From: Promethearchaeia archaeon
Lineage (GTDB): Archaea > Asgardarchaeota > Lokiarchaeia > Sigyniarchaeales > SOKP01
Reading direction: 5' to 3'
NCBI GenBank assembly: GCA_046497275.1
Contig: JAWOFX010000031.1
Span: 1-15,488 of the forward strand
Length of the DNA: 15,488 nt
Position 1 is the stretch's first letter; each line of letters opens with the position of its first letter. The notes under the pieces were generated by a model. The model ran no database searches. It worked only from the letters and a program-made list of their open reading frames with translations, and was not told the origin of the DNA. This document shows, piece by piece, positions 7,095-13,136 of this stretch. A program made the position numbers and the translations under genes.

Positions 7095-7769
7095 ATGTCA
7101 TTTGAAGAGAAACGGAAGGAATTAGTAGATGAGCTAAAGGAACGAGGAATATTAACTCAAAAAAATGTAATAAATGCAATGTTAAAAGTTCCAAGGGAAA
7201 AATTCATTCCTGAAAGTGTTCGATCCTCTGCTTATATTGATACTCCATTGGCTATAGGATCGGGTCAAACTATCTCAGCCCCACATATGAATGCTATGAT
7301 GTGTGAGATACTTGAACTCAAAAAAGGAGATAAAGTTCTTGAGGTTGGAACAGGATCAGGGTATCATGCTGCTTTATGTGCTGAAATAGTTGCACCAGCT
7401 AATTCAGATTCTCAAGGGCATGTCTATTCTATTGAACGACACGAGGATTTAGCAGAAGAAGCAAGGAAAAATTTCGGGGAAACAGGATATTCTCAAAGAA
7501 TAACAGTTATTATAGGAGATGGAACATTGGGATACAAAAGAGAAGCACCATATAATAAGATCTTAGTAACTGCAGCTTCTCCAAAGGAAGTTCCCCCTCC
7601 TTTAGAGGCACAGTTAGCTGAAGGAGGAATAATGTGTATTCCCGCTGGTGCAAAACGATTTACTCAATTTTTATATAAGATTACGAAAATAAACGGGACG
7701 ATTAAGCGAGAAAGAATAACAGGGGTAAGATTTGTCCCGTTATTAGGAAAATATGGATTTGAAAGTTAG
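7095..7769 (+). CDS. pcm: Protein-L-isoaspartate (D-aspartate) O-methyltransferase
   Basis: VPREKF, AY.D.PL.IGSGQTISAPHM, VLEVGTGSGY (SAM motif I), GDG..G....APYNKI.VTAA and VRFVPL.G. Confidence 0.96.
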   Translation: MSFEEKRKELVDELKERGILTQKNVINAMLKVPREKFIPESVRSSAYIDTPLAIGSGQTISAPHMNAMMCEILELKKGDKVLEVGTGSGYHAALCAEIVAPANSDSQGHVYSIERHEDLAEEARKNFGETGYSQRITVIIGDGTLGYKREAPYNKILVTAASPKEVPPPLEAQLAEGGIMCIPAGAKRFTQFLYKITKINGTIKRERITGVRFVPLLGKYGFES

Positions 7770-7771
7770 AT

Positions 7772-7939
7772 TCAACTAATTTTTGAATATTTATGTTTTT
7801 CTCGTCTTTTTTGTAATAATTCTTTACGTATATCGTTTACATACTTGCTTCTATCGATTTTTTCCTTTAAATAATCCTCACATGCATTCCAACATGCTTT
7901 AGTATCACAATTGACTCTACATTTATCAAGTTTAAACAT
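7772..7939 (-). CDS. Unannotated 55-aa Cys-rich micro-protein (micro-ORF A)
   Basis: Hand translation: MFKLDKCRVNCDTKACWNACEDYLKEKIDRSKYVNDIRKELLQKRREKHKYSKIS*. It has an SD-like AGAGGGGAT at 7953-7945, a C-x3-C-x4-C-x3-C motif, a stop 2 bp from the convergent pcm stop, and similarity to micro-ORF B. Confidence 0.75.
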   Translation of the reverse strand: MFKLDKCRVNCDTKACWNACEDYLKEKIDRSKYVNDIRKELLQKRREKHKYSKIS

Positions 7940-7944
7940 AGTTC

Positions 7945-7953
7945 ATCCCCTCT
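7945..7953 (-). promoter_or_regulatory. Shine-Dalgarno-like site for micro-ORF A
   Basis: AGAGGGGAT, close to the archaeal GGAGGTGAT consensus, ending 5 nt before ATG 7939. Confidence 0.55.
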
Positions 7954-8105
7954 TAATTTTACCTTTCTTGCATTAATTATATGTAAAAAAGGCATTATTA
8001 AGGTTCTCATTATAGTCTAGAATTTTAAATGAGATAACCGATATAAATTATAAATAAAGATATGCCTAAGTTCTCATAATTTAGCAAAAATAAGGGATGA
8101 TTTAC

Positions 8106-8240
8106 TTATTTATTAAGTTTTTTATCCATCAATTTTTTACGTACGCCTTTAAGATATTCGTTTCGTTCTAGGAATTCTTCAAATGTTTTATGATTGAAAC
8201 TCCAAGACTTTCTATTCTGATAATGACGATATTCTCTCAT
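8106..8240 (-). CDS. Unannotated 44-aa basic helical micro-protein (micro-ORF B), apparent paralog of micro-ORF A
   Basis: Hand translation: MREYRHYQNRKSWSFNHKTFEEFLERNEYLKGVRKKLMDKKLNK*. An in-frame TAA upstream (8258-8256) fixes the ATG. Aligns without gaps to micro-ORF A (9 of 32 identical over W13-K44). Confidence 0.65.
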   Translation of the reverse strand: MREYRHYQNRKSWSFNHKTFEEFLERNEYLKGVRKKLMDKKLNK

Positions 8241-8327
8241 ATAGATCGAAAGAAATTATTTAAAGTTATTTTTAGATGGGTTTTCCAACTATTTAAATGT
8301 TAAGAAATTCGACGAATTATTAGGATT

Positions 8328-8356
8328 GAAAAGAAAAAAGAGGAAAAAGTGAAAAA
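8328..8356 (-). terminator. Oligo-T/pyrimidine tract downstream of the GH57 gene, probable archaeal intrinsic terminator
   Basis: Minus strand reads TTTTTCACTTTTTCCTCTTTTTTCTTTTC, beginning 20 nt after the TAG at 8376. Confidence 0.5.
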
Positions 8357-8375
8357 TTTAAAAGTGATGCCTTAA

Positions 8376-10556
8376 CTACAAGATAGTTATCTTAATATTG
8401 ATTGTAAAATCTTTTTCAAAATTGAAAATCGGAATAACATTAATTCCTTGAAAAATATCCTTATAGCCTTCATCTGTCCAAGTATAGGAGATTAGTGGGA
8501 ATTTAATTATTTTATTATTGAGATTAGAATCAATTTCTAAATCGAAAGTTAGATCATAATCTTTGTCATAAGCGCTAAAATGAGTAATAGAATATTGAAA
8601 TGGGTCTTGAAGAAGAACATCCTGTATTATATCTTCTTCTAGTTGATGACTTTTCCACGAAAAGTTTTTTGGGTCTCCATTAAAGAAGAAAGGAATATCA
8701 ACACCTAAATTTAATTTTTTTAAGAATTCTCCTAAATTATCATCACTTTGAGGATTTTTCAATATATTGCCTTTAATAGATAATTCTATAATATTTTTCT
8801 TAACTAAAATTTCTTTTCTTATTTTTATGCCAAAATTATAATTTGAATCAGCATGTCTTATCCACCCTTCTTTCTCTAAGATAATTATTGCTTTCTGATC
8901 ATCTTTTTGTGTTTTTATTACCTCAAAATTAGCTTCGGGAAAATTTGAGTATTCATCATATTTATCATCAGCTAATTGTTCTAAAGAAATATCATTTTGA
9001 AAGAATCTAATTCTAAGCATGCTCCTTCTAAATCTATCGATCGAAATTTCATTCTGTTCAATTTTCTCTTTTTCATGATATGCTTCCTCCCATCTTGTCA
9101 ATGTATTAAGCAAATTGTAAGCCTTAGGTTTATAATCTAGCTCAAAAATAGTACCTCCCTCAAAAGGGTTTATATATAAGTTTAATAGATCTGATTCAAT
9201 AATTAATTCTGTACGAGTTTTTTTAGTAAAATCCAATGGAAGAATACTCATATATGATTTTAAATTTGGAAATAAAATTTGATTAATCTCATCTATTAGG
9301 TTTTCAGCATTGATTAAGTGTTTATAAATCGCGAATCGCAAAAATTGTAAATAAACACCCCCAAATAAACCATGCCAATAGGGATCATTACATTGAGCTT
9401 TATAAATCTCATCCCAAACATTACTAATTTTTTGTTCGATTTCCTTTTTTTTATCTTGAATTTTTAGAGAATCCAGGTTTTGTTCAATTTGAATTAATTT
9501 TTCGCGCACATATAACATTTTTTTGTGCATATTATTAGACTCGGGATATTTTACAAGAAAATGTCGCCAAAATCCTCCTTTTAAAAACATATATAGTTCT
9601 TCTTTATCTTCATTTTCTCTTAATTTATCTCTATAATCTTCAAAAATTCTGCGGATTTTCGTGGGTAAAACCCATTCTTCCATTTTATCATAAGAAGCAG
9701 TTGGTAGGTATACTAAATCTTTTGCGGGAAAGGTTTTCATATATTCAGTAAGAGTTATCGATTTAATCCAATCATTTTTAACTATTCTTTCAAATAAGAT
9801 AGGTATAAATGGTTTACCGTTATCACCCTCTTTGTGTCCATTCCCTTCAACATAACAGATTTGGTGTGTAGAACCCCAAACACCCATTTTCTCGGCATCT
9901 GATATAAGAAGTGCCATTCTATCTCCTTTCTCATCAGCTAATTCTTTTAAATGGTTAATTGTATATGTGGTTGGTTTCCATGGAGTTAAATATCTTAAAT
10001 CTTCATTTATCGGGAAAATTCTAAGAGTTTTTCCTTGATCTTCTGTACTATAAGTATAAAGTGTCTCTTCTTGTGAAATCCCTGTCGATCTGAAATGGTT
10101 ATCATCTACAATAACATATTTTAATCCCGCTTTTTCTAAAAAGGAGGGATAATTTGGTTCCCATACTCGTTCTGATAACCAAGCGCCATTTACCTCTAAA
10201 TTGAATTCATTTTTGATTAATTTTGTTAATTTCTTAATTTGAGCAATCCTATCTTGCCTAGGGATTATAGCATATATGGGTTCATAATACCCGCCTCCTA
10301 TGATTTCTATTTGACCCCGATTTGCCATAGTTTTAATTTTTTCAATAAATTCTTTTTTATTTTTAATAAACCAGTCTAAAATGTTGCCTGAAAAATGAAG
10401 AGTGAATTTTATATTCGGATATTTATACATGGAGTCAATTAATGGTTTATATGCCTTCTTATAAGATTCTTCGAATACCCATTCAAAATTATCAATAGGT
10501 TGGTGGAAATGGAAGACTAATGGAAAGAAAATTGATTTTTTATTATTCTTACTCAT
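8376..10556 (-). CDS. Glycoside hydrolase family 57 alpha-amylase / 4-alpha-glucanotransferase (Thermococcales-like, with C-terminal domains)
   Basis: HFHQP, HFSG..L.W, GGYYEPI, WLSERVW (nucleophile Glu), SDAEKMG (acid/base Asp), YLPTASY..M.EW.LP, AQCND.YWHG.FGG.YL and GG.IFEL closely track the Thermococcus litoralis 4-alpha-glucanotransferase as I recall it. Confidence 0.93.
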   Translation of the reverse strand: MSKNNKKSIFFPLVFHFHQPIDNFEWVFEESYKKAYKPLIDSMYKYPNIKFTLHFSGNILDWFIKNKKEFIEKIKTMANRGQIEIIGGGYYEPIYAIIPRQDRIAQIKKLTKLIKNEFNLEVNGAWLSERVWEPNYPSFLEKAGLKYVIVDDNHFRSTGISQEETLYTYSTEDQGKTLRIFPINEDLRYLTPWKPTTYTINHLKELADEKGDRMALLISDAEKMGVWGSTHQICYVEGNGHKEGDNGKPFIPILFERIVKNDWIKSITLTEYMKTFPAKDLVYLPTASYDKMEEWVLPTKIRRIFEDYRDKLRENEDKEELYMFLKGGFWRHFLVKYPESNNMHKKMLYVREKLIQIEQNLDSLKIQDKKKEIEQKISNVWDEIYKAQCNDPYWHGLFGGVYLQFLRFAIYKHLINAENLIDEINQILFPNLKSYMSILPLDFTKKTRTELIIESDLLNLYINPFEGGTIFELDYKPKAYNLLNTLTRWEEAYHEKEKIEQNEISIDRFRRSMLRIRFFQNDISLEQLADDKYDEYSNFPEANFEVIKTQKDDQKAIIILEKEGWIRHADSNYNFGIKIRKEILVKKNIIELSIKGNILKNPQSDDNLGEFLKKLNLGVDIPFFFNGDPKNFSWKSHQLEEDIIQDVLLQDPFQYSITHFSAYDKDYDLTFDLEIDSNLNNKIIKFPLISYTWTDEGYKDIFQGINVIPIFNFEKDFTINIKITIL

Positions 10557-10779: not shown

Positions 10780-12510
10780 ATGTCTTTTTTAACACACTTG
10801 GATGAAACTATTGTTGAAAATTTTTTGAATTCAAATGAATTTAAAGCATGGCTTATCTCGAGAAGATGGTTTGGAGATAAATTTCTATTATCGAATTTAG
10901 ATTTTTATATCTCATTGGAATATTTTGAAATTATTGCAGAGAGAATTTTTCTAACTGTTATTAAGATATCCAGGTCAGAGGAATATGAAAAAAAATATTT
11001 TCTCCCTCTATTATATTACAAAAATTTAGATCAAGTTTTAGAGTCTAGTGAAAAAGATAAGCATAATATTTTAAAACTCACGGAAAATACCTTTAGTAAA
11101 AAGATTGCTCTCACCCTTGAAAAAGAACAAAAAATTTTTACAATTAATCTAATAGAAGCGGAATTTACTCTCTATTTCTGGAAGAAAATGCTATTTGAAC
11201 AAGAAATAACCGAAAGTTTTCCACACCTCTCATTAAAATTAACTTTGTATGAGGAACAATTCCAAGACGAAATCAATATGAAAAAAGTCCAAAATCTCAT
11301 AGAGGCAAGTATTTACCCTGAACGATATGATGCTAAATTAGAACAATTAGGGAAAGGAAATACAACTAATTTATTGTTTAAATTAACACTCTTCAATAAA
11401 AAAGAGAAAAATGCGGAATCTATTTCTTATGTAATGAAGGCATATAAAGAATACTCAGATAGTTTAGAACCTTTAACGTTATTTGTATTATTGAAAAATA
11501 ATTTTCCTGGAACACCTAAAATATATGGAACTATTGAACTTAAAGGAAAAGAAGCTATAGGAGTCTATGAGTATTTGCCAAATCAAGGAAATGTCGGTGA
11601 TATACATTGGAATGAACTAAACGAGATGATCTATGAGGTTTTTTCAAATCCAAATGAGGATTATTCAAATTTGATCGAAAAAAAAGAGAGCTCTCGTTTA
11701 ATTAAAAATTTTTGTACAGAAACGCTCCAAGTCTCTGATAGAATAGCTGAATCTATAAATGAATTACATAAAACCCTTATTTTTCCTGAAAATGAACATT
11801 ATAAGTTAGAAGTAGTTGAAAGTGATTTTTATCTCAGTAATTATACTCAAAAACTAAATCTTATGATCTCAGATTTGCAGCATTTAATGAAACAAGAGTC
11901 TGAAAATATGTTCTATAATCTACCAAAAATCAGTTCAATCTTAATAGATACAAAAGACATTCTCGAAAAATTTAGAAATGAATTTCAAAAAGATAATATT
12001 GAAGTTCAAGCTGTTCATCAAGATCTTCACATGGAACAAATCCTTTATAAAAAAGAAAAGAATTCCTATAAATTCTATTTCATGGATTTTGAAGGTGATC
12101 CTCAACTCTCATTTGAAGAGAAGAAACAAAAATTCCCGATTGAAAAAGATTTGGCTTCTTATTTACGATCTTTAAGTTATATTAAATTCAATACACTACT
12201 CCAATATATCGAAAAAACAATTGTTAAAGAGGAGAGGTATGTTGTTGCTGAGGAGATTCTTTATAGTTTATTTTTCCGTAAAGGGACAAGAGAAAAAAGA
12301 AAAACTCTTAATAGTTTATTACATTTTTTAAATATATGGGAATCAAAAATCATGGGACGATTTCTTAAAGATTTAGAACCGAGCATTACATTGATAAATT
12401 ATTATACAATTGAACGAATTCTTCATGAAATTCAGTATGAAATGCTTTTTAGACCTAATAAATTTATAATTCCATTATTAGGACTCCAGGAAGTAATAGA
12501 AAATAATTAA
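10780..12510 (+). CDS. Maltokinase (Mak/Pep2)-like sugar kinase, aminoglycoside phosphotransferase/ePK-like fold
   Basis: N-cap WLISRRWFGDK (cf. WL..QRWF.GK), catalytic Lys in YVMKAYK, VHQDLHMEQIL (cf. IHGDLHLGQVL), DFEGDP (cf. DFEGEP) and KDLASYLRSLSY (cf. RDVAGMLRSFDY). Confidence 0.8.
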   Translation: MSFLTHLDETIVENFLNSNEFKAWLISRRWFGDKFLLSNLDFYISLEYFEIIAERIFLTVIKISRSEEYEKKYFLPLLYYKNLDQVLESSEKDKHNILKLTENTFSKKIALTLEKEQKIFTINLIEAEFTLYFWKKMLFEQEITESFPHLSLKLTLYEEQFQDEINMKKVQNLIEASIYPERYDAKLEQLGKGNTTNLLFKLTLFNKKEKNAESISYVMKAYKEYSDSLEPLTLFVLLKNNFPGTPKIYGTIELKGKEAIGVYEYLPNQGNVGDIHWNELNEMIYEVFSNPNEDYSNLIEKKESSRLIKNFCTETLQVSDRIAESINELHKTLIFPENEHYKLEVVESDFYLSNYTQKLNLMISDLQHLMKQESENMFYNLPKISSILIDTKDILEKFRNEFQKDNIEVQAVHQDLHMEQILYKKEKNSYKFYFMDFEGDPQLSFEEKKQKFPIEKDLASYLRSLSYIKFNTLLQYIEKTIVKEERYVVAEEILYSLFFRKGTREKRKTLNSLLHFLNIWESKIMGRFLKDLEPSITLINYYTIERILHEIQYEMLFRPNKFIIPLLGLQEVIENN

Positions 12511-13136
12511 CTTTTTTTATTTCTCTCTTCAATTTTTGCAAATTCAAAAGCAAAATGTGAGGCATCTCTTCGAACTGGTTGAATTATCTCCTTATATTTT
12601 TTCATAAGTTTGCTACTATCCTCAAGTTCTTCTGTAATGAATTCTTTATCATAATCCCCCTCATCTCCCTTTGTAATGAGGTACCAAATAAAGGCTTCAA
12701 CAAACCTTTCAGGTCCAAACTTTTTAGATATTAGTATATAATTTTGCTTATCTATAAATTTTGGAAATAATCCATATTCTTCGCAGAGATCTAATTTATA
12801 TGAAACATCATCTAATTTTCCTTCTAATCGAGCTAGGTCATTAATAAATCTGGCCAATTCAGTACCAAGCTCAATTTGTCTATGTTCATCAAATTTTGAG
12901 ATTAAAGATTTAAAAAATCTTCTTTTTAATAGAATCAAGTCATTTTCGTTAAGCGATTTTATTGAACTATGATCAATTAGAAAAAAGCGAGCCCTCTCTA
13001 AATATTCTCTAATTACTGCAGCTTTAGTTAATCTTCGTTTATCACAAATTTCATCTAATGTTTGATCAAGCTCTGGACTTATTCTTACTGTGAGAATCGC
13101 ATCCTTTTTATCTTCTTTTTTATCCTTTGGAGTCAT
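12507..13136 (-). CDS. Ribbon-helix-helix (CopG/MetJ-like) DNA-binding protein with a C-terminal putative ligand-binding domain
   Basis: aa 13-50, ILTVRISPELDQTLDEICDKRRLTKAAVIREYLER, fit the beta-strand/helix A/helix B pattern of RHH proteins. The remaining about 155 aa are unassigned, with a V4R/H-NOX-like pattern. Confidence 0.72.
   Translation of the reverse strand: MTPKDKKEDKKDAILTVRISPELDQTLDEICDKRRLTKAAVIREYLERARFFLIDHSSIKSLNENDLILLKRRFFKSLISKFDEHRQIELGTELARFINDLARLEGKLDDVSYKLDLCEEYGLFPKFIDKQNYILISKKFGPERFVEAFIWYLITKGDEGDYDKEFITEELEDSSKLMKKYKEIIQPVRRDASHFAFEFAKIEERNKKS

Follow-up and report, generated by a model that had tools for sequence, protein, structure and literature searches.

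A tandem pair of paralogs from a lineage-restricted small basic protein family in Lokiarchaeia/Promethearchaeota-type Asgard archaea

Do two very short, co-oriented reading frames in an AT-rich archaeal genome encode related proteins and, if so, what might such proteins do? The question is raised by ORF A and ORF B, which are separated by 166 nt (Table 1) in the window, that is, the whole 15,488-nt stretch of DNA analysed here. Based on sequence comparison, selection analysis and structure prediction, we conclude that both A and B are genuine genes that encode proteins. They are tandem paralogs of long standing, and the lineage-restricted family of small proteins to which they belong has a basic amphipathic helix as its conserved core, as had originally been predicted. 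That this paralogous protein family is real we hold with high confidence. The family is undescribed and matches no curated family.

Table 1. Features of the window discussed in the text
Feature	Positions	Strand	Details
ORF A	7772-7939	minus	55 aa, pI 9.4; Cys-rich A-type, PCMT-proximal
Shine-Dalgarno-like GAGGGG	7947-7952	minus	7 nt upstream of ORF A ATG
TATA-like A/T-rich stretch TTTTTTACATATAATTAATG	7971-7990	minus	32-51 nt upstream of ORF A ATG
Oligo-T run TTATTTTT	8086-8093	minus	13 nt past ORF B stop
Near-identical tract	8104-8800		~700 nt; mismatch-free runs of 227, 203 and 126 nt
ORF B	8106-8240	minus	44 aa, pI 10.1; Cys-free B-type, GH57-proximal
Second TATA-box-like octamer TTTAAATA	8257-8264	minus	24 nt upstream of ORF B ATG
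TATA-box-like octamer TTTAAATA	8290-8297	minus	57 nt upstream of ORF B ATG; family-conserved position
576-aa ORF	10780-12510	plus	Divergent from GH57
209-aa protein	12507-13136	minus	N-terminal ribbon-helix-helix (CopG-type) domain

Kinship and coding evidence

The original prediction placed both frames correctly, on the minus strand, and aligned them without gaps at an offset of four residues; this alignment is exact, with 9 of 32 identities (W, E, R, Y, R, K, L, K, K). The Cys counts that it gave are likewise right: ORF A has four (C7, C11, C16 and C20), placed around W17, and ORF B none, its residues of note being W13, N27 and the invariant Arg, R34. The DNA strings put forward as residual nucleotide similarity are present, AATTCTTTACGTA at 7818-7830 and AATTTTTTACGTA at 8131-8143. 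A single BLASTP comparison of A with B returns E = 3e-5. In a shuffle test the Smith-Waterman score of 55 stands against 25.0 +/- 4.8 for 5000 shuffles (z 6.3), none of which reached it, and A/B is the sole pair with that score among the 351 pairs of ATG-initiated ORFs of 30-80 aa in the window. Across the whole genome from which the window comes (3.85 Mb, 188 contigs) A and B are the only copies of the family. The two genes were described as unannotated, which is true of the ORF track on which the prediction was made, but not of public assemblies: both have gene calls in the JGI/ENA assemblies for a close relative, and NCBI entries for homologs bear the name 'hypothetical protein'.

Are these frames translated? 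At 28% GC, 45 open codons have a chance expectation of ~0.02, and the frame is open in all homologs, including the first 31 recovered, even where amino-acid identity drops to 20-30%. When compared with a relative sharing 93% DNA identity, ORF A has a dN/dS of 0.19; the flanking genes give 0.13 (GH57) and 0.145 (PCMT) for the same pair. The third codon position is the most divergent in 13/13 more distant ortholog pairs, A-type and B-type, for which the pooled pN/pS is 0.27, and ORF B differs from its ortholog in a genome of the same genus (G002) by 13/7/22 substitutions at the three codon positions. In both types purifying selection acts on the amino-acid sequence, over the whole length of the protein.

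An alternative is that the ORFs are untranslated, representing an RNA element or chance open frames within a conserved intergenic spacer. It could appeal to the AT-richness of the genome, to the fact that the RNA contigs described below carry no strand, and to ORF B and its upstream region, which are identical in the nearest relative at 135/135 nt of the ORF, synonymous sites included. This last argument, which would imply constraint at the RNA level, was rejected: the identity is uninformative on B because it belongs to a near-identical tract (Table 1), in a relative otherwise 93% identical, that runs from ORF B across the spacer into the 3' end of GH57 and looks like a recent homologous-recombination tract between strains. 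The open frames, the codon-position bias and the Shine-Dalgarno motifs that precede A-type starts all stand against an untranslated element, and Rfam returned no family at threshold (best match osmY RNA, 20.1 bits against 46.9). We consider this alternative extremely improbable.

Expression signals and RNA

Upstream of the ATG the two subtypes differ. A Shine-Dalgarno-like motif lies 3-18 nt upstream in 13 of 16 A-type homologs (background 0.11), ORF A among those bearing one, and in 1 of 15 B-type homologs. B-type genes carry TTTA[AT]A[AT]A 54-67 nt upstream of the ATG in 12 of 15 homologs, a position that the distal of the two octamers ahead of ORF B occupies. The proximal octamer, if used, would yield a near-leaderless mRNA for ORF B; its position is not conserved, being found in 2 of 15 homologs. 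We regard the A/T-rich stretch ahead of ORF A as its putative promoter and the oligo-T run past the ORF B stop as a putative archaeal terminator, and T-rich runs occur directly 3' of most B-type homologs. From these Shine-Dalgarno-like and TATA-octamer patterns it follows that A and B probably each have their own expression signals and that translation appears to proceed differently in the two subtypes.

RNA-library contigs from four salt-lake metatranscriptome runs, belonging to three studies, cover ORF A at 100% identity (7796-7952, 7644-7970, 7483-7961 and 7725-7941). These contigs cannot give strand. All four end 2-31 nt upstream of the ORF A ATG (7941-7970), just downstream of the putative promoter, and they could be the 3' UTR or read-through of the convergent PCMT gene. 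ORF B is covered by one low-depth contig (7997-8147) from one run, and the four runs hold no contigs over 8148-8499, which is no evidence of silence. Adapter remnants at contig ends have one orientation in X3 and X5, which would fit minus-strand RNA if the libraries were dUTP-stranded, and are inconsistent in X8; they were given no weight.

Start codons vary in parts of the family. The B-type copies L075 and L076 have no ATG, GTG or TTG before the core. A-type copies from several g11 genomes (L091:1782-1934, L102:1527-1679, L104:1487-1636 and L108:1462-1614) have no ATG before the conserved core; the second codon of their open frame is a conserved TTG, at which they probably start.

Range, locus and subtypes

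How far does the family extend? Searches with jackhmmer started from A or from B converge on one set of 31 small ORFs in related genomes, and these genomes hold many copies of the family with open frames, often as tandem pairs. Members are ~45-60 aa long with a pI of 9.4-10, and the family alignment yields the motif W ... [IL]-x-[RKN]-[NS]-x-[FY]-[VI]-K-x-[IV]-R-x-K-L-x-x-K-[KR]. Both ORFs match the family profile in the genome search (A at 1.3e-17, B at 9.1e-17), lie within a size range of 44-66 aa and have helix-cap-helix models. A profile search of 1.84 billion cluster representatives returned 101 clusters at E <= 1e-3, nearly all of them stand-alone proteins of 45-90 aa; the single long match is an unrelated repeat protein. 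Those entries that carry a name are called 'hypothetical protein' and come from the Loki's Castle metagenome and from MAGs of Lokiarchaeota/Promethearchaeota type. When the family profile was run against 301 genomes of the phylum, it was found in 55 of the 68 genomes of the window's own GTDB family (f1) and in 0 of 7 of the sister family f2, which appears to hold the cultured MK-D1-type genome; the remaining 225 genomes gave 3 marginal matches only. The family is therefore confined to one GTDB family of Lokiarchaeia/Promethearchaeota-type Asgard archaea. Within f1, none of four genomes of genus g8 (G013, G023, G173 and G204; 90-100% complete) matches the profile.

The genomic address is fixed. 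The block U32 peptidase > PCMT > < A-type < B-type < GH57 is kept in every locus examined, across at least 13 genera, and the genes farther out vary, so that U32, PCMT and GH57 are the only conserved neighbours. The Cys-poor B type adjoins GH57 and has SWSF or GKRNGW forms with N-N-E-F at the cap, and the Cys-rich A type adjoins PCMT and has the consensus C-x-C-W-N-x-C ... C-I-E-R-S-K. A census of the locus in 59 related genomes found a Cys-poor copy in 56, a Cys-rich copy in 25, both in 22 and a Cys-poor copy only in 34, the last group including all genomes sampled from genera g2 and g3. The B type is thus the near-universal core member and the A type an accessory paralog. Tandem B>A order is kept in 22-26 of the 59 loci, in several genera. 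The two classes cluster, but the tree is poorly resolved. Among A-type members Cys occupancy reaches only 49-60% at W-3, W-1, W+3 and W+10, positions shift from member to member, and exactly four Cys are present in 25 of 53 members, some having only 1-3. Away from the locus, 18 ectopic or weak matches were inspected, of which 14 are true small ORFs of the family (45-65 aa); these have no GH57, PCMT or other common neighbour.

Two rearranged loci were observed. In G002 (C28:23015-23769 and 32259-32393; L005, L024) the locus is split by an insertion of ~9 kb: two A-type copies stay beside PCMT, together with a broken B-like remnant that has an internal TGA, and an intact B-type copy stays beside GH57. 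In G004 (C372; L008, L029) a second, fragmentary B-type copy lies beyond GH57 at ~9430-9563, as does a 31-residue fragment of the PCMT C-terminus (L029:2730-2822), and these fragments suggest a partial segmental duplication of the locus.

Predicted fold, known families and possible function

AlphaFold2 models built with family alignments are alike for A and B and have a helix-cap-helix arrangement, with helices at 21-30 and 32-54 in A and at 17-26 and 28-43 in B. Helix pLDDT is 83-97 in the two models (86-97 over residues 21-50 of A) and falls to 56-62 in the N-terminal third, which holds the Trp, so the models are confident for the two helices only. The predicted order is a poorly ordered Trp-bearing N-terminus, a 10-residue helix, a one-residue Asn/Ser N-cap break and a basic helix of 16-23 residues. 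The Asn at the cap is near-invariant, and along helix 2 lie the invariant Arg and a hydrophobic stripe of the conserved pattern F/Y-V/I-x-x-I/V-x-x-x-L. Fold searches that started from the model of A led to no named fold: Foldseek against the PDB gave no match at E <= 10, VIA-align wide a best Z of 4.3 to generic helices only, ESM Atlas by shape unrelated long helices, and ESM Atlas by features values of 0.85-0.86 to unnamed clusters, within the chance range.

The original prediction recognised no known family, a view borne out when single proteins and profiles were searched: sequence matches in Pfam, NCBIfam and the PDB all stayed below threshold. We found no description of the family in the literature, and tblastn of A and one B-type member against 50,697 phage records gave no match. 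The closest described kind is that of the archaeal micro-proteins (<= 70 aa) of Haloferax volcanii, some of which are C(P)XCG zinc-finger proteins (PMC6562870, PMC11241148). Such proteins share with the present family a stand-alone nature, a length below 70 aa, basic character, small genes of their own and, in some members, about four Cys able to hold one metal ion (PMC6562870, PMC11241148). They differ from it in having no sequence similarity, in a conserved part that is a zinc ribbon or knuckle as against helix-cap-helix here, and in a range of haloarchaea as against one Lokiarchaeia family. Two C(P)XCG motifs within a protein of <70 aa occur in neither ORF: A has CRVNC and CWNAC, that is, CX3C-type spacings (C7-x3-C11 and C16-x3-C20) in place of C(P)XCG knuckles, and B lacks Cys altogether.

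Three further likenesses were considered and set aside. Seven of 110 members match the C-terminal segment of DUF188/YaiI-YqxD (PF02639) weakly and co-linearly, at profile positions ~75-114, with a common pattern of roughly G-x-x-Y-x-x-x-N-I ... R-x-F ... L-R; their scores of 12-18 bits (best 17.8) lie under the cut-off of 24.3, and A and B do not match at all. A genome-wide search with the PF02639 model did not match the small ORFs, 21 related genomes hold no true DUF188 gene, and DUF188 proteins, at ~130-150 aa, have a further domain that the small family lacks. A likeness to eL29 (PF01779) is one that we take, by eye, to lie in a small, basic protein with an (H/K)RNG(I/W) element and, ~17-19 residues on, a (P/N)x(F)(L/I)(R/K)NxR-type basic helix. 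With no PF01779 match at E <= 10 in the 110 members, nor in six frames of the window's own genome, we treat this resemblance as compositional. Finally, A and its closest orthologs, as small proteins with two CX3C motifs, recall the small Tims. CX3C motifs of small Tims are roughly 11-16 residues apart and sit on two antiparallel helices, but those of A are 4 residues apart (CX3C-X4-CX3C) in a region predicted to be non-helical; this spacing, the variable Cys (49-60%) and the failure to match in Pfam stand against the relationship.

What does the family add? As a kind, an archaeal micro-protein of which one paralog is Cys-rich is not new, and its range is narrow. Two ORFs below the detection threshold can now be described as a defined family: it has its own motif and two subtypes, and a mini-fold is predicted for it, while its expression signals, its taxonomic range and its constant place in the genome have been mapped. 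On this basis roughly a hundred MAG-derived clusters can be annotated. We found no eukaryotic counterpart and, with a range of one taxonomic family, there is no bearing on eukaryogenesis or on long-standing questions. The value lies in a well-supported orphan family, not in a new mechanism.

We propose an overall explanation, which on balance we think somewhat probable, in which this genuine family provides a mini-domain that binds a polyanionic partner and is metal-stabilised in the A type. The mini-domain would form by packing of the Trp and helix 1 with the hydrophobic stripe of helix 2, the packing of the Trp being a guess. This would leave the invariant Arg exposed, along with the C-terminal half of helix 2, which is rich in Lys/Arg, to bind the partner, most likely RNA or DNA and possibly an acidic protein. 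The A type is probably metal-stabilised: a metal ion, probably Zn, may be bound by about four Cys around the Trp and make the N-terminal loop more rigid. The binding step, suggested by charge, the invariant Arg and the predicted fold, is tentative. The proteins would act as small stand-alone binders or regulators and not as an obligate A-B pair.

The original prediction raised the possibility of such a pair, in which A senses metal or redox state and B is constitutive or antagonistic, and the two either dimerise, with the shared helix as the contact in homo- and heterodimers, or compete for one target. This scheme accords with the tandem B>A arrangement, each gene with signals of its own, across several genera, and with a helix core that is common to both types while their Cys content differs systematically. 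Yet an obligate sensor/antagonist pair is unlikely, given that B occurs alone in most genomes; B works without A, since 34 of the 59 loci carry only the Cys-poor copy. The Cys positions of A-type members shift, a pattern that, judged from the alignments, would be easier to reconcile with a metal or structural site of loose construction than with a conserved sensor. In the predicted models the short stripe of helix 2 faces helix 1, which would leave no long coiled-coil seam. A prediction of the A + B complex from subtype alignments scored 0.00, a value which, obtained without controls, speaks neither for nor against binding. Dimerisation or competition of this kind seems to us quite unlikely. 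A related scheme, in which a universal metal-free member and an accessory metal- or redox-responsive Cys4 paralog bring a shared basic helix to the same RNA, DNA or protein target, would mean, if true, that storage-glucan metabolism (GH57) or translation is tuned to metal or redox state; we judge it decidedly unlikely.

Could the A type be instead a RiPP precursor, with the Cys-rich N-terminus as core, the helix as 'follower' and the PCMT-like methyltransferase or the U32 protein as a possible processing enzyme? A variable Cys-rich N-terminus beside a conserved helix has the look of one, and PCMT homologs take part in some bacterial RiPP pathways. The PCMT here, however, is highly conserved and housekeeping-like (64-77% identity across genera) and is convergent to A; no cyclase, dehydratase, ATP-grasp, radical-SAM, transporter or other export gene is conserved nearby; the Cys-free B type, the commoner form, has the same fold; and purifying selection is not limited to one part of the protein. 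On these grounds a RiPP precursor is very improbable.

A functional tie to the neighbours, in which the family supplies the GH57 amylase/4-alpha-glucanotransferase with a regulator or accessory subunit, or else serves the PCMT isoaspartyl methyltransferase as partner or substrate, makes a fair rival to stand-alone binding because the genomic address is so constant. At every locus examined the family is found between GH57 and PCMT, the outer genes being variable, and even the split locus of G002 keeps B by GH57 and the A copies by PCMT. A GH57 link would be one to glycogen or maltodextrin metabolism. The near-invariant cap Asn invites a connection with PCMT, as Asn is the residue whose decay that enzyme repairs, but this connection is speculative. 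Several observations weigh on the other side. B-type genes have their own conserved TATA box and T-run and are therefore not simply co-transcribed with GH57, the 14 ectopic copies stand apart from both genes, and the profile scan did not find the family in f2. GH57 and PCMT are, moreover, widespread in archaea without the small family, and synteny inside one taxonomic family may be simple inheritance. We consider a tie to the neighbours unlikely.

Beyond GH57, two further genes of the window lie on opposite strands (Table 1). The 576-aa ORF has no Pfam match at E <= 0.1, and the stop of the 209-aa protein overlaps its end.
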